The position numbers and the translations under genes are program-made. From the IMG/VR virus record IMGVR_UViG_3300027976_000028, positions 2,055 through 66,054 of that record: a stretch of DNA of 64,000 bases, one strand, 5' to 3'. This document shows positions 1,521 through 23,425 of the stretch, in pieces; the first letter of the stretch is position 1, and every line of letters begins with the position of its first letter. This DNA is from a virus. The notes beneath the pieces were generated by a model. That model had not been told where the DNA came from. It did no database searches and saw nothing but the letters and a program-made list of their open reading frames with translations.

Positions 1521-1541
1521 TATCGCAGTGTTGATGGTTTG

Positions 1542-1549
1542 TATAAATA
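1542..1549 (+). promoter_or_regulatory. T4-like late promoter TATAAATA
   Basis: Exact T4 gp55 consensus, 4 nt before ATG 1554. The TAAATA core also occurs at 2284, 7033, 10158, 11587, 22567, 36622, 37416, 44036, 55312 (+) and 10027, 11570, 20343, 22038, 24862, 27088, 31256, 36531, 37369, 43925, 58555, 59007 (-). Confidence 0.8.
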
Positions 1550-1553
1550 CTTC

Positions 1554-2255: not shown

Positions 2256-2293
2256 TCACGCAGTAGGCAGCCTGCCCTTTTGCTAAATATCGT

Positions 2294-5200
2294 ATGAAAT
2301 CCCTGAACGAGTATTTAAACGAAGTTATTGCCCAACAAGAGTATGTATATCATGTGTCACATCTACCTAATCTTAAACTTGGGTTACGCAGTATAATTAA
2401 AAGTGGGTTACAGCCCTCTAAAGTTGGATATTCTGGACCCGGCGTTTATTTTGCATACAAGCCAGACGGCGGCTTCTACCATGTAGATGCAAGCGAAGCA
2501 ACTATGTTTCGTGCTAAATGGAAAAATCTTGTTGCACATTATGGTGTATACCCGCAAGCCCCGAATGGCATACAACGCGACGACGATGAAATCATTGTAC
2601 CAACGAGTGTACCCGTAGAAATGTTAGAAGTAGAATATAATCCCGGCGAATGGTGGGATGTAAAAAGTGCATTAGCAGCAGAAAATGGCCCAATGAACGA
2701 GGTTACCATTGACAACAAAGATGGTGCAGGCGCAGTCCCATACAATGCTGATATAGACTACTTTGGACTTCGCGTACAGATGAAGCCAAGTACATTCCTA
2801 CGCTTGGCCGAACCACTTGGCAAGCCACACGACCCGGAATTAGAAAAATATATGGCAGCGGGCGGTGCAACAGGCTCCCCATTTTTAGAAATAGCAATTC
2901 CTGAAGAATGGGATGTTGGCAATTTTAGTAAAGTTGCGCAGGTTAAACGTCACGAAGGTCGTAATCGTGCCACAATAACACAAAAGTTAGAAGGTGACAG
3001 TCCAATAGAAGTTCACCTTATACCACTTGGAGGATATCGTAATCGAGATTTAACTCCAGAGTTTATTAAAGCGTTAAGCGATGGTTTATTCGCAGAGAGG
3101 ACTACTCGTGTTGTAAATGGCCCATTGTTTACTGCAATGGTCGTAACTGAAGATGATGAAACTCTGCCTATGGCCGATAATCCAGAACATGTCCGCATGG
3201 CTGAGTTAAAGAGACTTATGGGTGCGTTTCCAAACTCAGCAGACTACATGTATAGTATCCCGGCGTATAAGCGGGCTCGCCTGCTATTCAACAAGGGCTT
3301 ACTCAAAGCGTCAAGACCTGAAATTGAGTTACTCCTCAAATTAACAACGTCGACTGGTGATCTTAAACCACTTAGTGAAGAAGAGGAATTAACTGAATTA
3401 TTTGAACCAAGCAATAAAGAATGGAAGTGGAAGCATCACTATAACACATCTGCTATAGCGTTATTTAAAATAGGCAAAATCCCATATATGTTTATGGCCG
3501 AAACATATACGCACCCCGATAGTCCAGAATCTGCGGGCATGTGGGATGTTGTTTTCAAAATCGACAAGCACTATAGCGGCTATACTGATCTCGAGGCCAC
3601 TTCATACGGAATCACTGGCTCTGGCAACTCTGCAGAAGTAATGGGAACGGTAGTAAACATCCTAAAGGATTTTATCAGCATATACAAAGAAACACTTCGC
3701 GGTATTACATTCGTTGCCAACGAAGATTCACGACAATCCCTATATGCTAAAATGGCACATAGATTATTACCAAATTGGGAATTCTATAAAGATGGCAAGG
3801 AATTCATATTATCAAAGCCAGAGGATAATGTAAATGAATCAGTGGTTAATGAAAGCCTAAGCCGCATTGCCTATCACTATACAAGTTTATCTAGTGCATT
3901 AAATATATTGACTACTGGGCAGTTTCAGCTTGCATCAACACTTGGTAGTGTTGAGGAGAAATATGCGCCTCAAGGGCATCATTACTTCATGAGCACTACA
4001 CGCTCTAGCAGAGGCGGCTATCACGACAGCAATGTAACAAAAAACTCGACAAGTGGTATATTATTTGCATTGGACGGCAACTGGTTTAATCAACACTACA
4101 AAGCAGGACCCATAGATTATTGGCAAAATCGTAATCAAAATCAAAGATTTAACGTCACGCACCACGAATCCGAAGACCGTATATTTTCGCGGACACCTAC
4201 TATTCCAATTGGCGGGATTACAGCGGTTCACGTATTCATGAAGGTAATGGATAATAAAGAACGGGACAATTACGGTGCAATGGCACCAGCTAATGCGCGT
4301 CAACTATTATTACGAGCAAAGACACTTGGCATTAAGGCATACCTATATGAAGATGTTACTGCATGGCACAATTTAGATATTAGAAAAACTGTACCTATTA
4401 CAAATAGAGAAACACTTCGCGGTCCCGATCTTAAGAAAGAACGTACATCATCAAAGCCCCGTGGATATTTAATGCCATGGATGGAATTGTTGCAAGCAAA
4501 AGAAGTGTCACAATTGTCTAAGGCTGCAGATCGCATTCGTTATAGTCTACAATATACATATGATGCTCAGAGTGCTATAGAGGGTTTAGCAAATAATTTA
4601 AGCAATGCCCGCAAGCCCGATTCAGGGGGCGATCGCGAAAATGCTGCGAAGCTAATAAGATTTATGCAACAGAATAAGTTGAACACTATTTCTGAACTTG
4701 TTAAGGCAATTGGGGACAAGTGGAAAGCTATTGCTGCCAAGAAACCCGCTAACGAAGTAATAGAATCAGATACCCCAATTAAACTTACAAGCAATGCAAA
4801 AGCTAAAGGTTGGATTGATAAAGTATACGCAAGGTATCCGCAGATGTTCCAACGCAATCATGTCATGCCTCTTGGCGGTGCGGGCAATGATCAACAGTTT
4901 GCTATGTTTGAACTAACACCAAGCTTCGCAAAACGTGATGCAGTGGAGGTAACATGGATACAAGCTTATCCAATGGGGCAAGGCGTAGGTGCAAGAGCAA
5001 TGAAAGAACTGCAAGCACTTGCAACTGCAGATGGCATTAGTTTAACATTATTCCCTTGGGACAAAGGACAAGTATCGCAGGCTAAATTGACAAAGTTCTA
5101 CAAAGGGCAAGGATTCAAGCCTACTGCCAAGGGTTCAAGGACCATGGCATGGAGTCCGATTACGGAATTGTTTGAACCGAGCACTAAAGACTGGAAATGG

Positions 5201-7027
5201 GAATTCCGTGGCAAATACACCGCCTCGGCGGTGTTTACTGTAGAAGGTATCCCGTATAAGTTTCATGCATCTACAGAGCCAGACCCAGATATTTACGGAA
5301 TATGGGATATTGAATTTACAATAGAAACTCCAAGACCGCCCGGTCGTTCAGTTAGATACAATCTATCGGGTACAGGTAACTCGGCTGCTGTAATGGGAAC
5401 CATAGTCGACATAATGAGGGCATTCCTAATTAAGTACAAGGATAACATCGGCGCATTGCAATTCTCTGCCGATGAAGTATCAAGGAAATCATTATATAAG
5501 CGAATGATTCAACGGTTATTGCCAAATTGGAAACTAAAGAGCTATCCTGGCGATATGTTCTCTATTACGCCGCCTGCGCTCCGCAAAAAAGTAATTAAGC
5601 CAACAGTTGAAACTGCAAGGAAAACTCTCAACGACTATCTTAACATTGTTATCGAAGACTTCAATTCAAATCCATACAGCAAAACTACACTACCGCTGGG
5701 TCCATATCGCGGACTAAGTAATCCACTGGACAATGATCATTCAGAATCATACGAAGCCTCGGAGTTATGGGATATAGTCGAAGATCAAATTGAAAAAGGT
5801 ATTAAACCAACCGTAATCGATTTTCCTATAAATCAACTTGAAGCTACACAGGATTGGTTAAGTAGTGAAGCAGGCGACGAAGCACTATTTGACGAATATA
5901 CAGATCATCCGGTTGTATTAGCATACGCAGCCGACAATTATATACTTGATGGGCATAATCGTATTGCCGCTGCAATTAAAAATAAACAAGTTAAAATACC
6001 AGTGTTTTTGTTTGATGCTGATGTGAAAGTAACAGAAGGTGAATCTAATATGAAAATTAGAGAATTGCTAATGAACGGAGGCTGGGCAAGTGACTTAACT
6101 TTTTCCACAGTCATCACACCAGCAGTAGTGCAAGAAATGGTAAAACATCTTGCGGAGTTTGAACAGAAATTCAATGAATGGGAAAAGCAGGGTAATATGG
6201 GATTAGAGATTAACATTGGCAAACCAGTGGGCTCGGGTACATATTATGAACGAGATCTTATACAAGATCCAACACGAGAATATGGCGATGTTGATGTTAT
6301 GTGCTATATTACAAGTCTCCCAGATGAAAGTGCTGCCCAACGCATCGCTGTTTATCGCACTGCTATTCAATCTTTCTGCCAACTCAATGCAAAATACAAA
6401 ACAGATAATGGCACTAATGTTATATTTGATTCAGCGGCAGGCCCCGTACAAGTTGATTTAGTTTACACCTTCCACGAACACGCAAATTGGGGACGAGCAT
6501 TAGCACCAGAATATAGGGTTAAAGGGGCTATTAATACAAGTTTAACAAGCGCAATGGCCGACGCCCTGAATCTTAGTTTTAGCTCTCAAGGTGTACAGGC
6601 AAAATTACGCAATGGACAGCCAGTAAGCTTCCGCCAAAGTAAAGATACGATACTACATATGGTATCAATTGATCCCGAGAACTGGGCAAAGGACATATAT
6701 AGTTTCTATTATGAATTGGCAAAAGGTGAAAAGCCAACATCGTTTCCCGGGGGACTTGAACAGCATAGCGGGATTAAAGACGAGCAACGGTTAAGTGACA
6801 TTGTATATGCTATCAAGAGTCTTGTAGCGGCCTTTGAGCAATCAATGATATTACCTCCAGATTTAATGAATAAGATTGCCGATATATTTGTGAGCAAAAT
6901 GGATGCACAAATTGGGTCGTCAAAGTACTTAACAGCTCAAACACCTGAAGCCGTCGCTAAAGCTGATAAGACTAAGGCTATGTTTATGCGCTACAAAGAA
7001 GAGATACCAAAGTTGCTTCTGAGCTAA
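2294..7027 (+). CDS. 1577-aa multi-module (polyvalent) protein: ART-like x2, ParB-like x2, repeated unknown domain x2, GNAT, nucleotidyltransferase
   Basis: YHVSH..GPGVYF..DEII; HEGRNRA; LFEPSxKxWKW repeats at 3398 and 5168; AYHYTS..YFMSTTRS; GQGVGARAM..LTKFYKGQGF; ILDGHNRIAA; VGSG..YGDVDV. Confidence 0.8.
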   Translation: MKSLNEYLNEVIAQQEYVYHVSHLPNLKLGLRSIIKSGLQPSKVGYSGPGVYFAYKPDGGFYHVDASEATMFRAKWKNLVAHYGVYPQAPNGIQRDDDEIIVPTSVPVEMLEVEYNPGEWWDVKSALAAENGPMNEVTIDNKDGAGAVPYNADIDYFGLRVQMKPSTFLRLAEPLGKPHDPELEKYMAAGGATGSPFLEIAIPEEWDVGNFSKVAQVKRHEGRNRATITQKLEGDSPIEVHLIPLGGYRNRDLTPEFIKALSDGLFAERTTRVVNGPLFTAMVVTEDDETLPMADNPEHVRMAELKRLMGAFPNSADYMYSIPAYKRARLLFNKGLLKASRPEIELLLKLTTSTGDLKPLSEEEELTELFEPSNKEWKWKHHYNTSAIALFKIGKIPYMFMAETYTHPDSPESAGMWDVVFKIDKHYSGYTDLEATSYGITGSGNSAEVMGTVVNILKDFISIYKETLRGITFVANEDSRQSLYAKMAHRLLPNWEFYKDGKEFILSKPEDNVNESVVNESLSRIAYHYTSLSSALNILTTGQFQLASTLGSVEEKYAPQGHHYFMSTTRSSRGGYHDSNVTKNSTSGILFALDGNWFNQHYKAGPIDYWQNRNQNQRFNVTHHESEDRIFSRTPTIPIGGITAVHVFMKVMDNKERDNYGAMAPANARQLLLRAKTLGIKAYLYEDVTAWHNLDIRKTVPITNRETLRGPDLKKERTSSKPRGYLMPWMELLQAKEVSQLSKAADRIRYSLQYTYDAQSAIEGLANNLSNARKPDSGGDRENAAKLIRFMQQNKLNTISELVKAIGDKWKAIAAKKPANEVIESDTPIKLTSNAKAKGWIDKVYARYPQMFQRNHVMPLGGAGNDQQFAMFELTPSFAKRDAVEVTWIQAYPMGQGVGARAMKELQALATADGISLTLFPWDKGQVSQAKLTKFYKGQGFKPTAKGSRTMAWSPITELFEPSTKDWKWEFRGKYTASAVFTVEGIPYKFHASTEPDPDIYGIWDIEFTIETPRPPGRSVRYNLSGTGNSAAVMGTIVDIMRAFLIKYKDNIGALQFSADEVSRKSLYKRMIQRLLPNWKLKSYPGDMFSITPPALRKKVIKPTVETARKTLNDYLNIVIEDFNSNPYSKTTLPLGPYRGLSNPLDNDHSESYEASELWDIVEDQIEKGIKPTVIDFPINQLEATQDWLSSEAGDEALFDEYTDHPVVLAYAADNYILDGHNRIAAAIKNKQVKIPVFLFDADVKVTEGESNMKIRELLMNGGWASDLTFSTVITPAVVQEMVKHLAEFEQKFNEWEKQGNMGLEINIGKPVGSGTYYERDLIQDPTREYGDVDVMCYITSLPDESAAQRIAVYRTAIQSFCQLNAKYKTDNGTNVIFDSAAGPVQVDLVYTFHEHANWGRALAPEYRVKGAINTSLTSAMADALNLSFSSQGVQAKLRNGQPVSFRQSKDTILHMVSIDPENWAKDIYSFYYELAKGEKPTSFPGGLEQHSGIKDEQRLSDIVYAIKSLVAAFEQSMILPPDLMNKIADIFVSKMDAQIGSSKYLTAQTPEAVAKADKTKAMFMRYKEEIPKLLLS

Positions 7028-7079
7028 TGAGCTAAATAGAGTACAATGATTTCATCATTAAATATAAAGGAAAATTAAA

Positions 7080-7358
7080 ATGGATCTATTTCTCATAATC
7101 ATCTTCATCGTAGTAGTGCTTGCGGTAGTCGTCTTTTACTTGCGTGAAGGAAAAGACGTACAAAACGAAGTCTCCAATATACCACCTAAATTTGACGATG
7201 CACCGTACAAAGTCGACCCGCCAGTTGTAGTTGAACCACCTGCTGTTACAGTGCCAGTAGTTGCCGCAGCTCTTGCAAACGATGTCACTAAATCAGCACC
7301 TAAGGTTACTGCAAAGCCAAAAGCTAAAGCTAAGAAGCCACGTAAACCAAAAGCCTAA
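7080..7358 (+). CDS. Small membrane-anchored protein with Pro/Ala/Lys-rich tail
   Basis: N-terminal hydrophobic helix; KPKAKAKKPRKPKA tail; AAGGA SD. Confidence 0.75.
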   Translation: MDLFLIIIFIVVVLAVVVFYLREGKDVQNEVSNIPPKFDDAPYKVDPPVVVEPPAVTVPVVAAALANDVTKSAPKVTAKPKAKAKKPRKPKA

Positions 7359-7360
7359 GT

Positions 7361-8077
7361 ATGTTGTTACGAGAAGTCATTGCGGTTCGCAAAGTTATCA
7401 ATGAAGGTGGAAATGTCTTTAAGGACAAGGATGGCACACCGCTGACTGATCGTATTCAACGTGCAGATGTAGAGCCTACAGTAAGATGGTTAGAGAGTAT
7501 CACGGGATACAACTTGTTTTCTCACTTGCTTGGTACAACGGGCAAGAAAGAGAGTTCCGGCGACATTGATATTGGAATGGAAGAGGTTGCAACAAAAGAA
7601 GACTTAGTAAATAAACTAACAGTTTGGTGCTCTCAAAATGACGTAGAGGCAGCAACATACATTAAAAAGTCCGGCATTAACGTACATTTTAGAACGCCAA
7701 TTGGCGGATCATCAGATCGTGGGTTTGTACAAACCGACTTCATGTTTGTTCCTAATTTAGATTTTGCCAAGTTTGCAATGGCAGCGGATCCGCATAGTAA
7801 GTATAGAGATATGTACAAGCATATCACGATGAGTTCTCTTGCAAAGCCGTTGAATATGTTATGGAACCCAACGACAGGTTTGTCTGATCGTACTACTAAG
7901 AAAGTAATATCTACAGACCCAGACAAAATTGCACAAACGCTATTAGGACCAAACGTTGATCGCACTGCGATTACAAGCGTAGAATCTATATTAAGAGCTC
8001 TTGAAAATGATCCTCAGAAGGACGAAAAATTAGCAGATGCAAGAGCAACTCTTGCAAAAACTGGGATAACAATTTAA
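7361..8077 (+). CDS. Nucleotidyltransferase (Pol-beta superfamily)-like protein
   Basis: LLGTTGKKESSGDIDIG (hG[ST]...DxD) plus VQTDFMF third acidic residue. Confidence 0.7.
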   Translation: MLLREVIAVRKVINEGGNVFKDKDGTPLTDRIQRADVEPTVRWLESITGYNLFSHLLGTTGKKESSGDIDIGMEEVATKEDLVNKLTVWCSQNDVEAATYIKKSGINVHFRTPIGGSSDRGFVQTDFMFVPNLDFAKFAMAADPHSKYRDMYKHITMSSLAKPLNMLWNPTTGLSDRTTKKVISTDPDKIAQTLLGPNVDRTAITSVESILRALENDPQKDEKLADARATLAKTGITI

Positions 8078-9538
8078 ATGCTATTACGACAAATTATACT
8101 TGAGAAAGAAGGATTCGATGCAAACGAGCTATTAGCATTTAAAGATGTCATTGCGTCGAAGATTAAGCAATTGCCGCAAGATGATGCCACTGCTAAAACT
8201 CTTAAAGAAATTGAGGAATTATTGACGCACGTTAATGCAGGCGGACGAATGGGTATGATAAATGGAGCATTGCACTCAATAAATGATCCAGCTGTATTAT
8301 CTTCACAAAAACGGTTATCACAGTACCTTGCAAGTATGGAAGTAAGTCCTGACGAACGCAAGGAGTTATTTCACCTATGGAAAACAGATAAGATTCTTAA
8401 CATTGATGTATTGTTGTCTAAAAAGAATGTTACCTTCTCGGAACTATTCAACGGTTACGATACTAACAAAGCTATTAAAGAGTTAGTAGATGACGTAATG
8501 GAAGTTGCTGATTTGGGGCAAGGCAAGGGCGAGTTTGGTCTTAATGTATTATCAAAGAGTGTTAGTAAACCAGGGTCGCATACAAACTTAGATCAAGATG
8601 GAGATGACAAAGCTAAGGGTGACTTAATTATTAAATACAACGGAAAATGGCGTAAGATTGAAGTTAAAACAACACAGGGCGGTGGCGCACGATTTGCCGA
8701 CCAAGAAGTGCGTCCAGCCGAAGGATATGAAGCTGCATCATCTGAATTAAATGCATCAGTAGAGAAGTTAAAGAGTTCATTGGTGTACAAAGAAGTATTC
8801 CCCAATGGAATGGCCAAGGGTTACGGTATGAACCTTGGGCAGGCTATTAATTGGTATCGCCATACTCAATTGCCAAAAGTAAAAGCAGATTTCCTTAATA
8901 AGGTTGATAACGTAGTAACATTGATTTTTGGCGGTAAGAAAGCTGATCATGCTAAAGTATCGGCTATTATAAAAGCCATTAAATCAGGTGATGATAATAC
9001 TGCGAAGCAACAATGGGCACAGGCGTGTTTTAATTACTACATTGGACAAAAGGATGACGAAGGTGTCCTGGCTATTAACTTGAATAGTAAGAGCATTATG
9101 TTCTATAGTACATCAGATGACCTTACTAAACAAGGTTTACGTTTCTCTGCTGATACAATTTACCTAACTGCTAAAGATGCACAGCGCGGAGCATATCCAC
9201 AAATTAGTGTTATCCCAACCACCTTTGGTGCTAATGCCAAAGCAGCAGGAGAAAAGAAAGCTGCCGACGCCGAGAAGAGTAGACTACGTGGATTAACACG
9301 GGCAGCGACTGCAAATCCAGTTGATGCACCAGCGCGCCACCCAACAGTAACTCGTGCCCAATTTAACAAAGACATGCTAGCATTCGCTACTAACTTTGCA
9401 CACCGTAAGAAGATATATGATCCGGGTCGTATTAAAGAACTTAGTGTATTTGCAGCTGATTTAATTGCCAGTGGCGCATCAATGACGAGCATTAGGAAGC
9501 AATTAAGCGGCCATGCTGCCGAGATGTTACCATCATAA
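8078..9538 (+). CDS. Putative PD-(D/E)XK nuclease-fold protein
   Basis: GKGEFGL..KGDLII..KIEVK motif. Confidence 0.55.
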   Translation: MLLRQIILEKEGFDANELLAFKDVIASKIKQLPQDDATAKTLKEIEELLTHVNAGGRMGMINGALHSINDPAVLSSQKRLSQYLASMEVSPDERKELFHLWKTDKILNIDVLLSKKNVTFSELFNGYDTNKAIKELVDDVMEVADLGQGKGEFGLNVLSKSVSKPGSHTNLDQDGDDKAKGDLIIKYNGKWRKIEVKTTQGGGARFADQEVRPAEGYEAASSELNASVEKLKSSLVYKEVFPNGMAKGYGMNLGQAINWYRHTQLPKVKADFLNKVDNVVTLIFGGKKADHAKVSAIIKAIKSGDDNTAKQQWAQACFNYYIGQKDDEGVLAINLNSKSIMFYSTSDDLTKQGLRFSADTIYLTAKDAQRGAYPQISVIPTTFGANAKAAGEKKAADAEKSRLRGLTRAATANPVDAPARHPTVTRAQFNKDMLAFATNFAHRKKIYDPGRIKELSVFAADLIASGASMTSIRKQLSGHAAEMLPS

Positions 9539-9553
9539 TTTAACGTCAATAAC

Positions 9554-9581
9554 AAAAAAGGACCATTATGGTCCTTTTTTT
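9554..9581. terminator. Bidirectional intrinsic terminator
   Basis: AAAAAAGGACCA-TTA-TGGTCCTTTTTTT between convergent genes. Confidence 0.85.
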
Positions 9582-9598
9582 ATGAAGTATATCAATAA

Positions 9599-9949
9599 TT
9601 ACGTTCCAAGTGTAACCGAATAATCTTCTACAGCAGCAGCAAACGTCCACAATACCAACGTGCCATCTGCAAATTGATGAGTGCCACCGCCGGTCTGATG
9701 AACTCGTAACTTCCTATCATGTACACGAGTTACATTGTATGTATTGCCATCACTGTCGAGTGCTTCAATAGTCATTAAATTATCGGATCCGCCAACCGCT
9801 GCAAGTCGAAACGGGGCTCTGCCCTCTCCAACTAAGTTGTACCGGTGAGTTCCTGTTTGTTTATTAATATCGGCAGTTGCTGGTGCTTCTTCAAATGTGA
9901 AGTTTGCAGTAATATTTAATAATGTTGATTGTTTAAGTGGTCGTCCCAT
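9599..9949 (-). CDS. Hypothetical, probably virion-associated, protein
   Basis: 116-aa ORF (MGRPLK...), AAGGAG SD, late promoter upstream. Confidence 0.75.
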   Translation of the reverse strand: MGRPLKQSTLLNITANFTFEEAPATADINKQTGTHRYNLVGEGRAPFRLAAVGGSDNLMTIEALDSDGNTYNVTRVHDRKLRVHQTGGGTHQFADGTLVLWTFAAAVEDYSVTLGT

Positions 9950-9966
9950 TTGTTTCTCCTTGACGT

Positions 9967-10021
9967 TCTAGGTCTACGCTGTTGGTACAGCATAAGTCTT
10001 GCTAATGCAAGCTCTACTAGA
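9967..10021 (-). promoter_or_regulatory. Candidate structured 5' UTR (three-way junction)
   Basis: P1 TCTAG/CTAGA, P2 CTTGC-ATTA-GCAAG, P3 ATGCTGT-ACCA-ACAGCGT between the promoter at 10027 and the SD at 9956-9961. Confidence 0.45.
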
Positions 10022-10025
10022 CAAG

Positions 10026-10100
10026 CTATTTAGTAATAGGTGGGTGTTTGCCGCCACATTTCGGGCATTCTTCTGATTCGATCATTAAGTTTAAGTACAT
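10026..10100 (-). CDS. 24-aa CxxC micro-protein (MYLNLMIESEECPKCGGKHPPITK)
   Basis: AAGGAG SD 6 nt upstream; below the ORF-track threshold. Confidence 0.45.
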   Translation of the reverse strand: MYLNLMIESEECPKCGGKHPPITK

Positions 10101-10167
10101 ATAATCTCCTTTATGTAACCCATACTTAGCAGATCAACAAGTAGATCATCATTTGTATAAATAACAT

Positions 10168-11220
10168 ATGAAACTTTCTGAACTCCATACCATTATAGAA
10201 GATGAGGGCGGTGGTGCGTCTGCTGGTGCTACATCAAGTGGGGATATTGCCACTGTATCATTCCCGTTAATGACAAGGGGTAAGAACAAAAAAGCAAGAT
10301 TTGCAGCCGGTCGTAAAGCAGTTGGACTAAGTGGAAGTGTTACAAGTTACATTGGCAAGGGCGTGTATGAAGGTAGTGGCGCAGGGATAGGAAAGAAGCA
10401 TATTAGCCCAAGTGGAGTTAAAACTAACATGCCACCATCAGACGAGGATTATGAGATCAACTACGGTAAGAAAGGGGTTGCTGCGAAAGGCATCGGAGAA
10501 GCCCACACACTTGACAACAACAGTGTTATCTACAAATTGGATCCAACTGATCCAATGAACAAAACAGAGGTTATGGTGTTAGGCGGTGCAGGTCGTTATA
10601 CATTGTCCTCTCTGCGTAATAAAGCACGAAAAGAAGCGCAAGCATTAACAACCGATTTACAAGCTGAACATGGTGGTTCATTCCGCAGTGCAGCATATAA
10701 TATTAAACAATTAACAAATACACTGAATACCATCGTTGCTGCTTATAATGAATTAAAAAGAATTAGGCAGAAAGGCGGTCGAGGCTCCCGTGGCATTACA
10801 GACGAGGATGCAAATTTCGTCCGCGAACACCTTGAGACACTTGAACAATATGTTATTATTGTATCAGAAGCAAGGGGACTTACTGCTAATTTCAAAACAG
10901 CATTGAAAGAAGGCAAGTTAAACAAGATGCATACAGATGCAATATCGGGCATGTACCACCTTGGCATAGATCCGGGTTATGAGATGTACAGATGGTCAAT
11001 TCACACCGCTGGAAACAAAGGAGGACCAGACGCTGGACTTGGTCCAAAAGCAGGACCATTCGCCTTCGCATACACCGACGAAGAGGATGTTATGATCCGC
11101 AATGCAGTGAAAGCAATGGGTGGCAAAATTAAAACATTGTCCGCACGCGGTAGTATCGAGTCTGACGATGTCAATAAAGTCAGTGCAATTCCGGTGTTGA
11201 ATTGGAAGAAGATTCATTAA
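10168..11220 (+). CDS. Putative internal head protein with Glu-delimited modules
   Basis: MKLSELHTIIE leader; internal VYE/IGE/VSE/LKE sites; TATAAATA 4 nt upstream. Confidence 0.7.
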   Translation: MKLSELHTIIEDEGGGASAGATSSGDIATVSFPLMTRGKNKKARFAAGRKAVGLSGSVTSYIGKGVYEGSGAGIGKKHISPSGVKTNMPPSDEDYEINYGKKGVAAKGIGEAHTLDNNSVIYKLDPTDPMNKTEVMVLGGAGRYTLSSLRNKARKEAQALTTDLQAEHGGSFRSAAYNIKQLTNTLNTIVAAYNELKRIRQKGGRGSRGITDEDANFVREHLETLEQYVIIVSEARGLTANFKTALKEGKLNKMHTDAISGMYHLGIDPGYEMYRWSIHTAGNKGGPDAGLGPKAGPFAFAYTDEEDVMIRNAVKAMGGKIKTLSARGSIESDDVNKVSAIPVLNWKKIH

Positions 11221-11580
11221 CAAGTAGTTGAGTTAAACGGACATTATTTCTTTTCGTACGAGTTGCAGCTTTTTCTTCAGAAGACCTACTTGTCTGAGCA
11301 ATGCTCATATTATGACGAATTATTGCCTTTTCTTCGGGCGATTTATTTTTCTTAGTTTCACTTATTTTTTGCCGGGTTGCTGCTGTTCGAGGAATACCAA
11401 TATCTAATTTGGGTTCAATTTTTGAGCTGTGTTTTCCGTAGTAATGTCGCTTTTCTACGATGTTTGTGATGCGATATACGCAATGATAAATAGGTTCGTT
11501 GGTCATATAATCCTTAATGGGGGTTGACTAATGACAGCGGTATTACAAGTACGCGGCTGTCACCTATTCTATTTAGTCTA
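11180..11580 (-). mobile_element. Internally deleted GIY-YIG/NUMOD3 homing endonuclease cassette (copy 1; ORF 11180..11506)
   Basis: Cassette CTAAATAGAATAGGTGACAGCCGC..GCTGTCATTAGTCAACC..AAGGATTATATGACCAAC; ORF VYRITNIVEKRHYYGKHSS joined directly to a NUMOD3-like PRTAATRQKISETKK. Confidence 0.75.
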
Positions 11581-11617
11581 AATCGATAAATATAACTATG
11601 AAAATGAAGGCCATAAA

Positions 11618-14600
11618 ATGATCACACTTAAAATTCTGCATGAAGGCAAATTTCAGAAACAAATCTCCAGCCGCGTGCATGAAGGAATTGTCATTGAGCA
11701 ACTAACAAGGTATAAAGGACTTGTTGACGAGATTCAATATTCCGGAGAGTTAACTGAAGGTGCAAGAGAAGTAATGCAGCGAGTTGCCAAAAAAGTAGTA
11801 CCAGCAGCTCTCGCAGCAGGAATGGCGATGGGCACACACGGAGCAATGGCGCAAAATAATCCGCATTACCCCGGCCTAAACAAAAGCATTGGCCAGCATG
11901 TATCTGATATCTTTAGCCCCAACTACAATGAAATACAACGGCAACGCCAGTATGAAAGGCAAACACAGCAACGCGAATGGGATGCTAAACAGAATGAAAT
12001 TCGCCAAGCCCGCGTGCGTGATGCAAGAAATTCTGGTCGTGATGCCACTGGACAGCCGCGTGGCAATGTAAAAGTATATGACCAAGCACGCCGTTCAGCT
12101 GACGGCAAGTACTTTCTGTTGTATGACATGGATGATCGCATCACACGGATTCCCGTCAACGGTACGGAGTATATGGAGGCTGATTCTCAACGCCTCCCTC
12201 ACTATATTGCACCAAACGGCTCGGTATATTATGTACGGAGTCCAGCAGCAAATGCGCAACCAACAGAGCAAATGGTAGCAGATGGACTTGGGGCAACACC
12301 AATGATACCAGCAAGTGGTACTGGTGCAGAAAAGCGAGCAGGCGGAGCAGCAGTGGCCGGAGTAGGTAGTACAGGTAGTGTTGGTGTTGCTCCTAAAACA
12401 ACACCTGCGGCCGCTATTGCCGCGGCCGGTATAAATCCACTTGATGCCGATGACGAAGTTATTTCAAATCCAGATGGCACAACAAATTTAAGTATTAAGA
12501 ACGGCGAACTTGTCATTGATAAGCCCGGTGTTAACGAAGCAAAGGGGTTAGCCAAGAAAGTTAAAGTTGTTAAAGGCGAACACGCTAGTAAGACAGGCTA
12601 TATTCGCCAAATTAAACATGGTGCATTTAAAGGTGCTCCGAAAACATACTATATAGATCTTGAGGATGGCACGCAAGCAAATAACATACCCGCTTCGTCA
12701 TTACGTTTAGTCAAAGATGCGCCAGTAACCGAAGGCGGCACATCAAATGATCTACAAGCAATATTAGATCAATACTCTGAGTCGTATGCAGACTTTAAAG
12801 AAGGTGGTGACTTAACGGATAATGACGCATTCTTCCAGGCACTATTTGATTATTTTAGCAACTCTGGCGATATGCCTTATGGTGTTGCCAAAGCACGCGA
12901 TGGAGATCCTGTCCAATGGATCACAGATAGATTAGATGATTTATCGGGTATGGGCGATAAAGTAGCAGAAAGCGACCCAAGTGGACTTATGCACGCCGCA
13001 AAAACAATGAATAACGAATGGCGCATTACAGCAATGATGGATGATGGCAAGGTAAAGAAATTCCGAGTTAGAACACAGAGTGCAAGAACAGCACAGGAGA
13101 AATTTAAGAAAATCCATGCCACCGCACAAATTCAAAATGTTGAACGCATCGCCGAATCACAAATTGAAGGGACGGCACCAGTCAACGAGTTTTACGATTC
13201 AAGTATTGATAGAAATGATGATAGCTATGGTCCCGATGATTTGCATCTTTATATCAATGTCGCTAAAAAACTTGATATGAAGAAATACAAAACAGAAACT
13301 GCACATACTCTAATTTCCAAAAAAATGGCAGGATTAGTTGCGACAGTTGATGATGACAAGGTTACCTACGCTTATCAAACTGCACAAAAAGAGCAAGGGT
13401 TGCCTCATCTATTAGGCGAAGCCGATTTAGCATTTGATGCTGACGATACACTGTATACACTCACTGATACCTATCGCGATATCATGTCATCTGATGCGTA
13501 CGATACTGACAACAAGCAACAAATTGGATTGTTGTATGATATGTTAAGGGATCCATTAATGGCAGGGGATGAAGATGAATATTATAAAGTTCACGCTTAC
13601 TTACACGCAAAGTACCCAGACGCAATGGACGAACTATTAAGAGCAGCAGACCACCTAGCTCAAGGACCGCTATCAGAAAACCCACTATCACCAACCACTA
13701 GATTCCGTAGTATTCATGGCAATTACTGCGGTACCGGTAATCGTGGTGGTATGCCAACTGACAAGTTAGACCGTGCATGTTTCCATCACGACGTAGGTTA
13801 CAAAAAATCAAGAGAGTTGCCAGATAAAGACGCGGCGCTTGCTGCAAGAGTTATCGCAGATACTCGTTTCATGGATAGGGTGAATAAGATTCAGCATGAT
13901 AAAAGCTACTCGGCTTCAGTTAGATTTAAAGCCAGGATATTTGGCAACTATTTTAAGATAAAGAACAGAAATGCAGTTCCAGTAGGTGTTATTGAAGGCA
14001 CACATGATTACGCTAAACAGTTCACGAGTATGATGGACAAAATCAAATCAAAGAAAATGGTCACTGACCGTAGCACCGGCGTTGAGTATGATCCCGAAGA
14101 GGAATTTCTCAAGCTGTTACAGCAACATAAAGCACAATTTCAAGGAATGGCTGCAATTGAAAAAGCACAGAAGAGAGGTGTAGCAGAATCATTAAATAAA
14201 GATAGATACGACCAAGAGCCCATTGATCAACTTGACGATCAAATAAGTGACATTCTGCTTCGTGCTTATGAGAAACACGATAATCGAGATGATGTCATTG
14301 CAGCAGCATGGCCGGCTGCAAAGCAAGCAGCACAAGAGTTGAGTATTGATCCGACGGGCAAAAGCTTTCATACCGTTTGGAAATTGGCAATTGGTAGCGA
14401 TGCTGAGTACGCAGATGAAAATCCAGCAATGGCAGACACTACAAAGCGGCTACAAGATCCAAATGATGGTAAAACTGCCAAACTAAGAGCAAGCGGCGAT
14501 AAGAAACGCGACGGTCACCAATCTCAATCATATGGATATGTCCAAGACATTCCAGATATTGATGCAGATGATGTCTTGGCGATAAGTAGTGCTATGAAAC

Positions 14601-14662
14601 CCGTATTCGAGGCGCAGACGCGTGTTGGTAAAATCATCAAATCAGTTTTTGGAACAAAATAA
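11618..14662 (+). CDS. 1014-aa modular protein with a phospholipase A2 module and a KOW/SH3-like module
   Basis: HGNYCGTGNRGGMPTDKLDRACFHHDVGY at 13715-13801; about 13 [LIV]xE sites. Confidence 0.75.
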   Translation: MITLKILHEGKFQKQISSRVHEGIVIEQLTRYKGLVDEIQYSGELTEGAREVMQRVAKKVVPAALAAGMAMGTHGAMAQNNPHYPGLNKSIGQHVSDIFSPNYNEIQRQRQYERQTQQREWDAKQNEIRQARVRDARNSGRDATGQPRGNVKVYDQARRSADGKYFLLYDMDDRITRIPVNGTEYMEADSQRLPHYIAPNGSVYYVRSPAANAQPTEQMVADGLGATPMIPASGTGAEKRAGGAAVAGVGSTGSVGVAPKTTPAAAIAAAGINPLDADDEVISNPDGTTNLSIKNGELVIDKPGVNEAKGLAKKVKVVKGEHASKTGYIRQIKHGAFKGAPKTYYIDLEDGTQANNIPASSLRLVKDAPVTEGGTSNDLQAILDQYSESYADFKEGGDLTDNDAFFQALFDYFSNSGDMPYGVAKARDGDPVQWITDRLDDLSGMGDKVAESDPSGLMHAAKTMNNEWRITAMMDDGKVKKFRVRTQSARTAQEKFKKIHATAQIQNVERIAESQIEGTAPVNEFYDSSIDRNDDSYGPDDLHLYINVAKKLDMKKYKTETAHTLISKKMAGLVATVDDDKVTYAYQTAQKEQGLPHLLGEADLAFDADDTLYTLTDTYRDIMSSDAYDTDNKQQIGLLYDMLRDPLMAGDEDEYYKVHAYLHAKYPDAMDELLRAADHLAQGPLSENPLSPTTRFRSIHGNYCGTGNRGGMPTDKLDRACFHHDVGYKKSRELPDKDAALAARVIADTRFMDRVNKIQHDKSYSASVRFKARIFGNYFKIKNRNAVPVGVIEGTHDYAKQFTSMMDKIKSKKMVTDRSTGVEYDPEEEFLKLLQQHKAQFQGMAAIEKAQKRGVAESLNKDRYDQEPIDQLDDQISDILLRAYEKHDNRDDVIAAAWPAAKQAAQELSIDPTGKSFHTVWKLAIGSDAEYADENPAMADTTKRLQDPNDGKTAKLRASGDKKRDGHQSQSYGYVQDIPDIDADDVLAISSAMKPVFEAQTRVGKIIKSVFGTK

Positions 14663-14663
14663 A

Positions 14664-16808
14664 ATGAAATTCTTTACAGAAATTAAAACAGTTAGTGAAG
14701 CATCGGTTGCTGCAGGCCCACGCACCAACGTTGAAGAAATGTTCAACCAGGACACATATGCTGGTAATCCTGGTGAGTTTGATAAAAGTGACCCACATGC
14801 CAAGCCCAAATTGGCACCAAAGAAGAAAAATCCCAACGATGGCAAATTTGTTCAACATGGCGCAAAAGTTCCCCGTGGATATACAATGACTGCTCATGGG
14901 CGGGTTGTTAAAGAAGTGGCCAAAGACGGCCAGGTTGATGAAGGCGGACAATTCAGTTACGGTGCAAAGGACCCAAAGAAGGGCAGCCAAAGAGAATTAA
15001 GCGCAAAGGCAAACAAAGATGCCAAGAGTAAGTCAACACCAATCGAGCCCAAGGATCAAATGGTTGGCATCGCCAAGGTTACGAAAGTTAAAGAAGGACT
15101 CGCTGATGATTTCATGGCATCTATTGACAAGAAGAAATTCCCCCAGGCACGCATAGTTGGTAATGTTGATGCACAGAAAAAAGAGCGTGACGAGATGATT
15201 GCAAAACGCACCGCTGATAATGCAAACAAACCAACACCCGTTAAAGGTCCCGGCGATTTAGCAGCTGGCTTTGGGCAGAATAAAGGCTACGGTCAGGGTC
15301 GGTACATGGGTGATTCTAAAATCAATGCTGCAAGTGCAGTTACCGAAGCAGGTGGCGAGAAGAACTATGGTGTTCGCTACAAAGTATTCGCGAGTAAAGA
15401 AGGTAGACTTACTACAAAAGAATATTGGACAACATCGTCTGAGAAATTAGAAAGAGCTGCAACGAAGATTGAGGAATTGGGTAACTTCCACTCTATCGAC
15501 GGGTATAGCTATCCTCCTGAACCACAGGGCATGGCAGAAGGTGATCAAAGCAAAAGTGCATCTGCCAGCCGTGCAAAAGAAGCACACGAGCAAAACCTTG
15601 ATGCAGCACATAGGGAATTGATGCAGCGTGATGCAGATGGTGAGGATATGAGTGGATATCATGTCAATCCCCGTACATACAAAATTCAGAAGCAGCTACC
15701 GGGCAAAAAGTGGACGCAAGAAGAACAGCGGGCGCATATGATTGATAGAATGCGTAATGAAGGATTAGAGGAAGCCAGCGTCATGACATCGGGTCACAAA
15801 GGATATGACGCCATGCTATCAATTATGAAAGCAGCCGCCGCCGGTCGTGCAGCCACATTTACCATTGGCGAAGAAGAACTTACATTAGATTACAACGAAG
15901 CTACATTCTTAGCAGGAAAATACAAGGCATTCCTAAAAGCAGGTAGACAAGAAGAGTTCCTGAAGTATATGGAAAGTCCACGGCTGTTTGATCGTTTAAT
16001 GTCACAGTTGCGCACGATGATTGATAAGCAAAAGAACTTCAAAGGTTCTGTACAAGGCGATCGTCAAGTGCCCGGCGAGAAAAGCAGTCCTTTTGAAAGT
16101 GTTACCGAAGGGCATGTGGGTCCAACGCATAAAGATTGGGCATCTGCTGTTCAACGGGTTAAACAAAACAAGTTTAAAACAAGTGATCTTGTAAATTCGG
16201 TACAAAGTGTACCATATAAGCATCTTGCACAATTAGCACGAGATTCTGGACTCACCCCATCTGACGAGATGTTGAAACATGAGAACAAAAGTAAAGTAAA
16301 AAATGTCGCCGAAGGGCACTGTTCTCCTGGTGACAAAGTGAAGATTGATAATCCAAGTTCAATCCATCATGGAAAGACAGCCACCGTTGTTTCTCACAAT
16401 AAAGAAACTGATAAGACCATTGTTAAGCACTCTGGCGGCAAAACAATGAGTGTTGACCATATGTATCTTGAGAAAATTAAGGCCACTAAGAAGATCAATG
16501 AACTTAGCCCAAAGACACTTGGCTCGTATGCTAAGAAGGCATCAAGTTCAAGCGACGAAAGAAGCAATTCCAGCTTATCGTCACGCGCCGCCTACAAATT
16601 AGCAAACGATGAAAGAAATGATGACGGAGACGAAGACGATCATAAGTCATTCATGCGCTCAAAGGGAATTGCAAAAGCTGTTGATAGATTGACCAAGGAA
16701 AGTCCCTCATTGAAAGAAGGGCAATACTTCTGCCTAAGAGACAATGTTGCCAAGGTAATCCCAACCGGTTATAAGTTACTTGAGAGTGGCTTCATTGCAA
16801 GGAAATGA
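14664..16808 (+). CDS. 714-aa modular, charged putative internal head polyprotein
   Basis: MKFFTEIKTVSE leader; about 12 [LIVM]xE sites incl. INE-LSPKTLGSYAKKA; start reassigned to ATG after the upstream TAA. Confidence 0.7.
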   Translation: MKFFTEIKTVSEASVAAGPRTNVEEMFNQDTYAGNPGEFDKSDPHAKPKLAPKKKNPNDGKFVQHGAKVPRGYTMTAHGRVVKEVAKDGQVDEGGQFSYGAKDPKKGSQRELSAKANKDAKSKSTPIEPKDQMVGIAKVTKVKEGLADDFMASIDKKKFPQARIVGNVDAQKKERDEMIAKRTADNANKPTPVKGPGDLAAGFGQNKGYGQGRYMGDSKINAASAVTEAGGEKNYGVRYKVFASKEGRLTTKEYWTTSSEKLERAATKIEELGNFHSIDGYSYPPEPQGMAEGDQSKSASASRAKEAHEQNLDAAHRELMQRDADGEDMSGYHVNPRTYKIQKQLPGKKWTQEEQRAHMIDRMRNEGLEEASVMTSGHKGYDAMLSIMKAAAAGRAATFTIGEEELTLDYNEATFLAGKYKAFLKAGRQEEFLKYMESPRLFDRLMSQLRTMIDKQKNFKGSVQGDRQVPGEKSSPFESVTEGHVGPTHKDWASAVQRVKQNKFKTSDLVNSVQSVPYKHLAQLARDSGLTPSDEMLKHENKSKVKNVAEGHCSPGDKVKIDNPSSIHHGKTATVVSHNKETDKTIVKHSGGKTMSVDHMYLEKIKATKKINELSPKTLGSYAKKASSSSDERSNSSLSSRAAYKLANDERNDDGDEDDHKSFMRSKGIAKAVDRLTKESPSLKEGQYFCLRDNVAKVIPTGYKLLESGFIARK

Positions 16809-17434
16809 TTATGGAACTTACAGTACTTACAGTAGATCAATTACAAGAATGTTTGCCTAACGCACGCCGAGAGCGTCTTGAATTTTTCGTTGATGGTATT
16901 AACGAAACATTCGAACAATTTGAGATTGATACACCGCAGCGCATGGCAATGTTTCTTGCTCAAACTGCCCACGAATCTGCTAACTTCTCTGCTGTTGAGG
17001 AAAATTTAAACTACTCAGCCAAGGGCTTATTGGGCACATGGCCAAAGCGTTTTCGTGGCGTAGAGAATCAATATGCCCGCAAGCCACAACAAATTGCCAA
17101 CAGAGCATATTGTGATCGCATGGGCAATGGTTCAGAATCAAGTGGTGATGGATGGAAATACCGTGGCCGCGGCCTGATTCAACTTACTGGCCAAGACAAT
17201 TACCGTACCTGTGGAGATGCATTGAATCTCAATTTACTCGATGATCCTGATATGGCTTCAAAAAATCCAGCAGCAGTGCTTAGTGCAGGATGGTTCTGGA
17301 CCACTCGTCGTTTAAATGAGATAAGTGATTCAGGCGATGTAGCAAAGGCCACAAAGGTTATCAATGGCGGTTCTAATGGTCTACTTGATCGGCAATCTAA
17401 GTATCAACATATTATAAATGTGCTTAGTGCATAA
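16805..17434 (+). CDS. Glycoside hydrolase family 19 endolysin
   Basis: FLAQTAHESANF..EENLNYS..DGWKYRGRGLIQLTG..NY..SAGWFW..TKVINGG. Confidence 0.92.
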   Translation: MIMELTVLTVDQLQECLPNARRERLEFFVDGINETFEQFEIDTPQRMAMFLAQTAHESANFSAVEENLNYSAKGLLGTWPKRFRGVENQYARKPQQIANRAYCDRMGNGSESSGDGWKYRGRGLIQLTGQDNYRTCGDALNLNLLDDPDMASKNPAAVLSAGWFWTTRRLNEISDSGDVAKATKVINGGSNGLLDRQSKYQHIINVLSA

Positions 17435-19470: not shown

Positions 19471-20337
19471 TTACATTACATAAATATTGCCCACGCATGA
19501 GTTTAGGACATCATCAAACATACTACCCATATCCATTGACAATGCATGGCTTGCATTGGCCCGGTCAGTATCGTTTCTAAATTCTGGATTCAAGTTCATG
19601 AACCGTGTTGGGTTGCCCCATGCCTTACGCCCGTATGTTAGGTTCATTGGAATTGGATTTAATGTGATATGGCCATCTTTGAGGTATTGTGCAAACATTT
19701 CATACATGAACTCGTATGGTCGTTTAATTAAATTACTGCGGCTACTCTTCTGTGTGCCAATTGCATTAAACAATGCATTATATTCCGCAGTTTGATCATA
19801 GTTCATTCTATCAGATCCAGTTCCGTATACGCCACTTTGCTTCTTTCCATAGCAATCAGCAAGTGTGTTATTAACCGTCGAGAAAAAGTGCTTCTCTGCT
19901 TCTTTCCAGTCGCCCCATTTGCGACCACTACCTGCCCTGGGACCATCATTAATAGCATTAATAGCATGTCCAAATCTATGCATCATTACCCAGGGAGTCA
20001 TCATTACTTTGGCTTCGCCACTATTCCCAACAAACACTACTGTAATTGCATCATTGCTATCTTTTAGAATCTGGGTAGCAATATCTGTTCCAAATATCTG
20101 GTCAAGTATGTTAGTATCAACTTTACCTATTTCAGGGTACTTGCCTGTGCCCGTTAGATTAGAGAAAAACAATCTAAAATCATATGGGGTATTTTCCAGG
20201 AACTTTGCAGTCTTTAATTGGTTAGTTGGATGAGGCACAAGTTTCTTATCAACACCGCGGAATGGTCCAGGTTTAGAGAAATCTCCAAGCGGCTGAAAGT
20301 CTGCCAATGGTGCTTCGGTTATGTCTTTAATTTTCAT
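19471..20337 (-). CDS. Putative internal head protein with a zincin-like HxxxH motif
   Basis: MKIKDITE leader; PWVMMHRFGHAI; TAAATA 5 nt upstream of ATG. Confidence 0.65.
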   Translation of the reverse strand: MKIKDITEAPLADFQPLGDFSKPGPFRGVDKKLVPHPTNQLKTAKFLENTPYDFRLFFSNLTGTGKYPEIGKVDTNILDQIFGTDIATQILKDSNDAITVVFVGNSGEAKVMMTPWVMMHRFGHAINAINDGPRAGSGRKWGDWKEAEKHFFSTVNNTLADCYGKKQSGVYGTGSDRMNYDQTAEYNALFNAIGTQKSSRSNLIKRPYEFMYEMFAQYLKDGHITLNPIPMNLTYGRKAWGNPTRFMNLNPEFRNDTDRANASHALSMDMGSMFDDVLNSCVGNIYVM

Positions 20338-23230: not shown

Positions 23231-23425
23231 TCAATAATTGCCCTTGATGCTCAGCTGTAAATTCCGGGCTGCTCTAAATACATCTTCTACATCTGTAAAC
23301 TCTGATGGATTTTCTTGCATTGCAATGGCCTCATCAGAGGACCGCGCCATGACTATCTTCGTTGCACCACCACTGCTCATAACGGTCCACCTAACCAATG
23401 GTGCCGGGCTTCTTGGTTGCGTCAC
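23231..23425 (-). CDS. Small ORF, possibly the frameshifted C-terminus of the amidoligase
   Basis: Overlaps the last 35 nt of 23391..24857 in another frame; no clear SD. Confidence 0.35.
   Translation of the reverse strand: MTQPRSPAPLVRWTVMSSGGATKIVMARSSDEAIAMQENPSEFTDVEDVFRAARNLQLSIKGNY

Follow-up and report, generated by a model that had tools for sequence, protein, structure and literature searches.

Does a tailed phage carry its own membrane-hydrolysing enzyme into the host envelope? This question is raised by a 64,000-nucleotide (nt) stretch of viral DNA (positions 2,055 to 66,054 of IMG/VR record IMGVR_UViG_3300027976_000028; this whole stretch is called the window here), from an uncultured phage, in which a long open reading frame (ORF) encodes a 1014-amino-acid (aa) multi-module protein that contains a phospholipase A2 (PLA2) module. 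To our knowledge, the crossing of the inner membrane by the DNA and proteins of contractile-tailed phages is still poorly understood, and the virion enzymes that we know of target peptidoglycan or surface polysaccharide, not lipid. Parvoviruses, in turn, use the PLA2 of VP1u to breach membranes during entry. Here it is proposed, with a confidence a little better than even, that the 1014-aa protein is a precursor from which a PLA2 is processed, packaged in the head and injected, and that this enzyme hydrolyses phospholipids of the host envelope.

The module had been noticed in an initial annotation of the sequence as a 106-aa segment of a putative head polyprotein, and our own translation agrees with it. 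The in-frame segment (aa 688-793, nt 13679-13996, + strand) lies inside the ORF at 11618-14662, the flanking motifs L-S-E (nt 13670-13678) and V-I-E (nt 13988-13996) stand just 5' of it and at its end, respectively, and the codon proposed for the active-site histidine (13787-13789) is CAC, encoding H724, followed by GAC for D725. The excised module has a computed mass of 12.0 kDa and an isoelectric point (pI) of 10.1. It was compared with its relatives in an alignment of nine family members, 38-64% identical to the window module (alignment A1), and with secreted PLA2 (sPLA2) structures. The features of the module are the following:

13679-13996, + strand: PLA2 module, with matches to PF08398 and PF00068, a PDB profile match, an AlphaFold2 (AF2) core, a VIA-align match (Z 8.1) and matches in BFVD
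13715-13738, + strand: calcium-binding loop H-G-N-Y-C-G-T-G (aa 700-707), with H, G, N, Y, G and G invariant in A1, aligning to YCGxGG of snake and pancreatic sPLA2
13760-13801, + strand: DKLDRACFHHDVGY block (aa 715-728), read from the translation
13787-13801, + strand: catalytic His724-Asp725 and Tyr728 (H-D-x-x-Y), invariant in A1, aligning to H48-D49-x-x-Y52 of sPLA2
13859-13861, + strand: Asp748, invariant in A1, in the predicted second long helix, 24 residues past His724
13727-13780, + strand: Cys704 and Cys721, the sole two cysteines of the 1014-aa protein, placed as in the C29-C45 disulfide of sPLA2

The segment matches PF08398 (Phospholip_A2_4, the parvovirus-type model) with an expectation value (E) of 6e-7 and 30.0 bits against a cut-off of 23.9, which is also exceeded when the whole ORF is the query (25.1 bits). 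With PF00068 (Phospholip_A2_1) the segment scores 29.3 bits, under the cut-off of 32.1 for that model. Both models are matched at E <= 0.01 by all nine aligned family members, and the near-equal scores of the segment indicate that the module is no closer to parvoviral than to cellular sPLA2. A phmmer search of the segment against the PDB gave 146 sequences at E <= 1, the best 60 of which are all sPLA2s or PLA2 homologues; the best match (E 8.5e-6) covers the calcium loop and the HD motif, and a profile made from the family alignment finds sPLA2 structures at E 1.9e-8 over the same two elements. The calcium loop is complete, with Y703-C-G705-T-G707 and D725 invariant in A1 and aligned to the sPLA2 loop. 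The invariant columns of A1 include H-G-N-Y, G, G, G-G-x-P-x-D-x-L-D, H-D-x-x-Y, D748 and one more Asp, as well as R, K-A and F in the last helix. Asp748 is probably the partner Asp of the catalytic network, equivalent to D99 of sPLA2.

The AF2 model, built from a shallow alignment, has a three-helix core with a predicted local distance difference test (pLDDT) score of 81-94 and disordered ends, the overall pLDDT being 70. When this model was compared with the PDB by VIA-align, the top three matches were all rice sPLA2 (Z 7.5-8.1 over 88-90 residues), the best of them at Z 8.1 over 88 residues with a root-mean-square deviation of 3.4; these stand more than 1.3 Z above the next match, which belongs to unrelated helical proteins. 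Nearly all of the best 50 Foldseek matches in the PDB are PLA2s, at E 0.1-0.9. In the BFVD library of viral structures, most of the named top matches are parvovirus or densovirus VP1 or capsid proteins, and the top list also holds several unnamed viral proteins of 84-153 aa. The PLA2 identity given in the initial annotation is therefore borne out by Pfam, PDB profile matches, fold matches and invariant catalytic residues alike; the comparison with PLA2 families by profile and by Foldseek, which it had suggested, gave a PF08398 score above the cut-off and PDB matches that are nearly all PLA2s at weak E. Judged from its sequence, the module is a genuine domain of the secreted-PLA2 superfamily, and it is probably catalytically active and calcium-dependent.

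An exhaustive HMMER/phmmer search over 1.84 billion representative proteins found close homologues at 44-56% identity, most of which are small stand-alone proteins. In all, ~40 stand-alone homologues of roughly 90-150 aa were found in uncultured phages, all with the catalytic residues kept, and the A1 profile recruits ~40 phage-type clusters and then bacterial proteins of the "phospholipase A2 family". Over 41 homologues, the cysteine pair is complete in 36 and absent in 5, with no protein having a single cysteine. This perfect co-variation argues that the two residues contact each other, most simply as a disulfide. Five proteins (P0031, P0154, P0161, P0174 and P0176) have lost the pair and kept all catalytic residues, and they represent natural disulfide-free variants. 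In 50,697 deposited phage genomes, PLA2 homologues were confined to streptococcal SlaA-type prophage toxins and one staphylococcal phage gene, and the whole ORF had no match there by megablast and tblastn. A word-indexed protein search with aa 640-800 returned the protein itself as its sole match, and a whole-protein search for related loci in viral contigs found none.

The case for packaging comes from what precedes and follows the PLA2 domain, in the window and in its relatives. Two predicted cleavage junctions bound the module:

13670-13678, + strand: L-S-E junction, a predicted prohead-protease site, at a position before HGNY that is conserved in the family
13988-13996, + strand: V-I-E junction at the C-terminal end of the module; PLA2 homology stops at aa 780-788 and the matches of the next module start at aa 790

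An aliphatic-x-E motif ends 8-20 aa before HGNY in 31 of the 41 family members, and it lies exactly 12 residues before HGNY in 18 of them, including both the window protein, with its L-S-E followed by N, and stand-alone genes. At this junction P3 is hydrophobic, mostly Leu, Ile or Val, P2 is free (S, L, T, N, H, Q, M, V, F, E or W) and P1 is Glu, a pattern which is that of the published gp21 motif, L/I-x-E (PMC9026906). Downstream, the fused homologues P0021 and P0044 have M-E-E or V-A-E soon after the PLA2 domain. Both junctions of the window module fall in segments of the AF2 model with pLDDT below 50, which are presumably flexible.

In the stand-alone genes, most leaders are short and end in aliphatic-x-Glu, such as MKTFRQFVSE, MITFKQYLAE, MRSFKSFVNE and MVSFKQFLSE, and T4 ipII and ipIII start with MKTYQEFIAE (read from NC_000866). 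Residues 4 and 7 of the T4 leader govern capsid targeting and residues 8 and 10 govern processing, with cleavage at L/I-x-E (PMC9026906); six stand-alone PLA2 homologues fit the full IPII/IPIII leader, with an aromatic residue at 4, another at 7, an aliphatic residue at 8 and Glu at 10. Two IMG/VR contigs (L015 and L017) have a 216-aa open frame in which a PLA2 with the T4-type leader MKTFKQFIFE carries a basic C-terminal extension of ~100 aa. Together with P0021 (411 aa) and P0044 (310 aa), these fusions indicate that the PLA2 module has been joined to other cargo more than once.

The gene context of one stand-alone homologue places it among head genes. In IMG/VR contig G001 (locus L088), which covers ~29% of a T4-sized genome, the PLA2 gene lies two genes downstream of a trio encoding the head maturation protease (phrog_207, E 1.5e-58), the head scaffolding protein (phrog_237, E 7.9e-69) and the major head protein (phrog_138, E 2.6e-145). 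The major head protein gene is followed by a 296-aa gene, the PLA2 gene, a 165-aa gene with the leader MISFKEYLAE and the tail tube gene, and a perfect T4 late promoter box, TATAAATA, stands 4 nt before the PLA2 start codon (around 7925-7946). The gene right after the PLA2 (8300-8797) has this leader MISFKEYLAE, nearly identical to the leader of the PLA2, MITFKQYLAE, with an unrelated body and no family match, and the two genes look like a T4-style variable internal-protein locus. An S77 protease was found on three of the ten PLA2-bearing viral contigs scanned, including the only complete one (499.6 kb). The gene contexts of P0157 (L002) and P0006 (L008) were uninformative or too short. Taken together, a real PLA2 in the window and a small leader-bearing gene beside head genes in its relatives suggest that tailed phages probably pack and inject PLA2.

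The window protein differs from the stand-alone forms in that its PLA2 is embedded in a longer, modular product:

11618-14662, + strand: 1014-aa ORF (P0002), with a leader, a conserved carrier domain, a low-complexity linker and ~8 short cargo modules including the PLA2
11618-11758, + strand: N-terminal 47 aa with the sites LHE9, VHE22 and LTE47 (LSE in relatives), from the alignment of 12 orthologues (alignment A2)

The exhaustive phmmer search showed that aa 1-220 are common to ~22 proteins of 210-1314 aa, which have near-identical leaders and different C-terminal parts, and that each of the later blocks (~302-372, 373-451, 452-524, 525-601, 688-793 and 794-857) recurs in different proteins. 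E9, G10, E22 and E47 are invariant across the orthologues in A2. The borders of the blocks are marked by the candidate cleavage motif: of the 340 alignment ends in the window protein, 61% have an [LIVM]-x-E no more than 6 residues away, compared with 19% for random site sets (P 0.002), and in homologues a site is close by at 78% of the starts and 68% of the ends of blocks, over a background of 36%. Also, a leader site ([LIVM]-x-E ending at residues 7-20) is present in all seven + strand genes of 1539-16808 and in 19 of 57 other ORFs (Fisher P 0.001). The suggestion of the initial annotation that this is a processed head polyprotein thus has strong comparative support, in the form of T4-type leaders, a fixed upstream site, head-gene neighbours and border sites.

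The modules other than the PLA2 gave sub-threshold hints only (KOW and LPD24) in Pfam scans. The 70-aa KOW/SH3-like module at aa 302-372 (12521-12733) is by far the most widespread block, with the largest share among the best 150 search matches; it occurs at many positions in proteins of 100-1703 aa, is often flanked by [LIVM]-x-E and is sometimes a stand-alone gene with a leader such as MKLLQILNE. The module at aa 525-601 (13190-13420) has a sub-threshold match to LPD24 (E 5.5e-5, 23.9 bits with a cut-off of 27), a domain defined in polyvalent proteins of phages and conjugative elements. The model of the carrier domain (aa 1-300, 11618-12520; pLDDT 63, predicted template modelling score 0.28) had no convincing match in the PDB, where the best one (Z 6.1) is a designed protein and the rest are generic helices. 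In the carrier domain, aa 55-79 (11780-11854) form an invariant Lys-rich and then Ala/Gly-rich stretch ending in A-x-A-Q, with a modest hydrophobic segment (Kyte-Doolittle 1.25 over 19 aa). By its sequence pattern this stretch looks like a signal peptide, which cleavage of the precursor at L-T-E47 would place at the N-terminus.

The window belongs to an IMG/VR contig of 71 kb that CheckV estimates to be 21% complete, which corresponds to a genome of ~340 kb. Among the gene products of the contig are ClpA- and ClpX-like ATPases, DnaJ, a collagen-like tail fibre and a clamp loader of the gp44 type. The nearest counterpart of this clamp loader is that of the jumbo Pseudomonas phage PA5oct (55% identity), followed by those of Phosso, Atu_ph07 and RsoM2USA, with thousands of T4-like phages also matching. 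PA5oct, the closest cultured relative by this protein, encodes a T4 gp21-type S77 prohead protease. The same DNA was found in freshwater metagenomes from 2017 and, partly, in estuary metagenomes from 2022, and no RNA dataset is among the listed sequencing runs that hold it.

In the pathway proposed here, the precursor with its PLA2 module would be made late in infection and built into the prohead core of a giant T4-related phage, where a T4 gp21-type (S77) protease would cut after aliphatic-x-Glu, at L-S-E before N and at V-I-E before G. The freed basic PLA2 of 12 kDa would be retained alongside the DNA inside the head, as T4 internal proteins are, and would be ejected with the DNA at the next infection. 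Host phospholipids would then be hydrolysed at or near the point of penetration, most plausibly easing or widening passage through the inner membrane or permeabilising it. We infer packaging, cleavage, ejection, enzyme activity and the membrane target; comparison supports the steps of synthesis, core incorporation and cleavage, and those of retention, ejection and hydrolysis are inferred. That a tailed phage may deliver a PLA2 to help it cross the envelope, or to remodel host lipids, had been put forward in the initial annotation too.

However, several observations weigh against this proposal. The motif [LIVM]-x-E is short, and the 16 sites in the ORF compare with ~10 expected (P 0.03); two very common modules dominate the border counts, so that the data points are not independent. 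The window protein starts with MITLKILHE, having L-H-E at residues 7-9 but none of the aromatic residues found in the T4 leader; AF2 gives aa 1-62 as a small folded unit (pLDDT ~84), so the early N-terminal sites may not all be cut. The quality of the PLA2 model is moderate (pLDDT 70) and its Foldseek E values are weak (0.09-0.8). Scans for Peptidase S77 gave no match on the contig of the window (71 kb, 21% complete) or on the other seven of the ten PLA2-bearing contigs (11-54% complete); all of these are fragments and hence provide no evidence that S77 is absent from those genomes. Finally, classical sPLA2 needs near-millimolar calcium and often disulfides, neither of which is offered by the bacterial cytoplasm. 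This chemistry fits the periplasm or the exterior better, and it is a hint as to where the enzyme would act after ejection, not an argument against ejection.

Different fates can be imagined for the same protein. A PLA2 that is packaged and injected may have a task other than entry: from the cytoplasmic side it would attack the inner membrane, or it would act on a lipid signal, bringing about host shutdown, superinfection exclusion or the blunting of a membrane defence. The leader-bearing neighbours do look like effector enzymes (a weak Kinase-PolyVal match, an LPD24-like module and an amidoligase), and the PLA2 is variable cargo, absent from the orthologous carrier P0004, as would be expected of an accessory weapon and not of a core entry function; calcium dependence and a co-varying cysteine pair, however, suit an oxidising, calcium-rich compartment over the cytoplasm, and no result points to a defence-related target. 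Such a task is considered unlikely. There is a smaller chance that the PLA2 is not in the virion at all, being a late lysis accessory that attacks membranes from within alongside the adjacent endolysin. Two genes further downstream, the same late string has a gene for a full-length GH19 endolysin, in a neighbourhood kept in a relative, and the conserved, weakly hydrophobic, signal-peptide-like segment of the carrier could route the precursor to the membrane. Against this, the T4 endolysin gene e adjoins ipIII and ipII, making such adjacency equally expected for internal proteins; the stand-alone PLA2s inspected by eye have short leaders and neither an evident signal peptide nor an evident hydrophobic stretch, one of them sits between the major head protein and tail tube genes, and a role in lysis leaves the conserved aliphatic-x-E junctions unexplained.

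The two remaining explanations keep the protein in the head. It is rather improbable that the 1014-aa protein enters first the head and then the host without being cut, as a polyvalent protein in which [LIVM]-x-E reflects linker composition. Such proteins are large and multi-domain, and co-injection with the DNA has been proposed for them (PMC5512222, PMC7824862), in line with the weak LPD24 match in module 525-601 (E 5.5e-5, below the cut-off); yet P3 aliphatic, P2 variable and P1 Glu are fixed before the PLA2 in stand-alone and fused forms alike, the motif is enriched at block borders over background, and the same modules exist as separate small leader-bearing genes. Least credible is a catalytically dead PLA2 fold that serves the head core as a structural or charge-balancing filler: the module is small and basic (pI 10.1) like the DNA-contacting internal proteins of T4 (PMC3012670), but its calcium-binding and catalytic residues are all invariant at 38-64% identity to the window module, which is unexpected for filler.

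Among known systems, the internal proteins of T4 (IPI, IPII, IPIII) and Alt are, by analogy, the closest functional counterpart of a cleaved and injected PLA2, and the VP1u PLA2 of parvoviruses is the closest for the idea of an enzyme in the capsid. The 10-residue leaders of the stand-alone PLA2s match ipII and ipIII at positions 4, 7, 8 and 10 and share the L/I-x-E motif (PMC9026906). The T4-like features extend to the late promoter box and the position among head genes, seen for the homologue in L088, to an S77 protease on three PLA2-bearing contigs, and to the endolysin next door. T4 internal proteins are small and basic, of ~8-20 kDa (PMC9026906), and the excised PLA2, at 12 kDa and pI 10.1, is comparable. 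Unlike them, the window PLA2 is one of ~8 modules behind a carrier domain with internal junction sites and not a separate gene, and a lipid hydrolase is not among the functions given in two T4 head reviews (PMC3012670, PMC9026906). Homology to the mature T4 internal proteins was not seen, though no search aimed at it was made. By this comparison the PLA2 cargo is new and the format is that of a polyprotein, the logic of targeting and processing being that of the T4 internal proteins.

With the parvovirus enzyme, the phage module shares a minimal sPLA2-type domain with the YxGxG loop, HDxxY and a downstream Asp, as well as a PF08398 score above the cut-off, and in both cases the virus is taken to carry a PLA2 of its own to a membrane barrier. 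The parvoviruses, however, are animal viruses with single-stranded DNA and a capsid-tethered PLA2, whereas here the virus is a tailed phage with double-stranded DNA and the enzyme is predicted to be free cargo after proteolysis; the phage module also keeps the C29-C45-type cysteine pair typical of cellular sPLA2. Prophage PLA2 toxins, such as streptococcal SlaA on phage 315.4 and the PLA2 of Staphylococcus phage phi575, belong to the same superfamily. Their similarity to the phage module is weak: the phi575 protein is 31% identical over 83% of the query, and those of streptococcal phages are 41-43% identical over the calcium-loop and HD stretch only (35% of the query), at E 4e-6 to 6e-3. In contrast to the phage-type PLA2s, the genes of these toxins lie within ~1 kb of the ends of temperate-phage records, and the SlaA-like copies in IMG/VR (L029 and L033) have classical N-terminal signal peptides, as lysogenic-conversion toxins and not virion cargo.

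Polyvalent proteins (Iyer et al. 2017) resemble the window protein in being large and multi-module, with proposed packing in the head and delivery with the DNA, and the weak LPD24 and Kinase-PolyVal matches are a further likeness. No PLA2 is mentioned in the two papers on them (PMC5512222 and PMC7824862), and the text of 2017 is without "phospholipase", "lipase" or "PLA2". In giant phages of the phiKZ/SPN3US type, ejection proteins are extensively processed after Glu by a gp21-related protease (PMC9026906); the motif here differs in being the T4-type aliphatic-x-E, and, by clamp loader, no cultured phage is nearer than the T4-related PA5oct. A literature search, with most subscription journals outside its scope, gave no paper describing a PLA2 in the virion or inside the head of a tailed phage.

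If the proposal is right, a head-packaged PLA2 would add a membrane-hydrolysing step to phage infection and would widen the known functions of T4-type internal proteins beyond anti-restriction and ADP-ribosylation, and a capsid-carried PLA2 would be common to viruses as unlike as parvoviruses and giant phages. With shuffled cargo modules, joined by protease sites, placed behind a conserved carrier, a phage would have a compact format in which mixed effector sets can evolve and be delivered. The idea can be tested directly, since foreign proteins can be packaged by the capsid-targeting system of T4 and the enzyme is small. A broader view, which is tentative and on balance doubtful, is that phages of the T4 superfamily, from T4-sized to 500-kb genomes, load an active PLA2 through capsid targeting and the prohead protease and fire it into the envelope as a counterpart of parvovirus VP1u, with a cysteine pair that becomes oxidised only outside the cell, so that the enzyme would be armed in the particle; phages would then be a possible reservoir of minimal viral PLA2 domains.

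The surroundings of the ORF add some local detail. The following elements flank it:

11585-11592, + strand: GATAAATA box, one mismatch from the T4 late box, 25 nt upstream of the ORF start
14664-16808, + strand: next late ORF, 714 aa from the ATG at 14664, with the leader MKFFTEIKTVSE and a high density of [LIVM]-x-E
16805-17434, + strand: GH19 endolysin gene, whose start overlaps the stop of the preceding ORF (PF00182, E 1.8e-13; phrog_181, E 8e-83)

A perfect T4 late box stands 4 nt before the starts of two leader-bearing genes, at 1554 and 10168 (1542-1556 and 10156-10170). The box occurs 7 times in the window and 6.65 times in shuffles, which is not above chance, so the promoter boxes are weak evidence alone and serve as local context only. 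The 4-nt spacing to the ATG, seen in the window genes and in the unrelated T4-like contig L088, would give leaderless or near-leaderless late mRNAs. Starting 5 nt past the imperfect box of the polyprotein gene, a mini-ORF of 7 codons (MKMKAIK-stop, 11598-11621) contains the Shine-Dalgarno sequence of the polyprotein (GAAGG), and its TGA overlaps the polyprotein ATG (ATGA); this overlap suggests that translational coupling or leaderless initiation is possible.

The ORF at 14664-16808 had no Pfam or PHROG match. The GH19 protein is 45-49% identical over its full length to lytic enzymes of Pseudomonas phages and pyocins; it was considered as a second virion enzyme and rejected, given that its homologues align from the first residues and that it looks like an ordinary endolysin. 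The placement of this gene after the carrier gene is kept in a relative (L009, 15278-15895) on a 172.8-kb contig, and the same protein is present on a 327.6-kb contig. In T4 (NC_000866, 65416-66997), the endolysin gene e lies directly beside ipIII and ipII, so endolysin adjacency does not discriminate between a lysis and an internal-protein reading; the linkage of lysis and internal-protein genes may be old.

Elsewhere in the window, no head shell genes were identified among the ORFs scanned, and the 350-aa gene at 10168-11220 had no match in deposited phages. The gene at 1539-2255 has a weak match to Kinase-PolyVal. On the - strand, the gene at 19471-20337 begins with the leader-like MKIKDITE followed by A-P-L, resembling the PLA2 junctions, and the gene at 23391-24857, an amidoligase (PF12224), has the leader-like start MRIKDIYPFTAIQLNE. 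To judge by these starts, both - strand genes may encode further head cargo.

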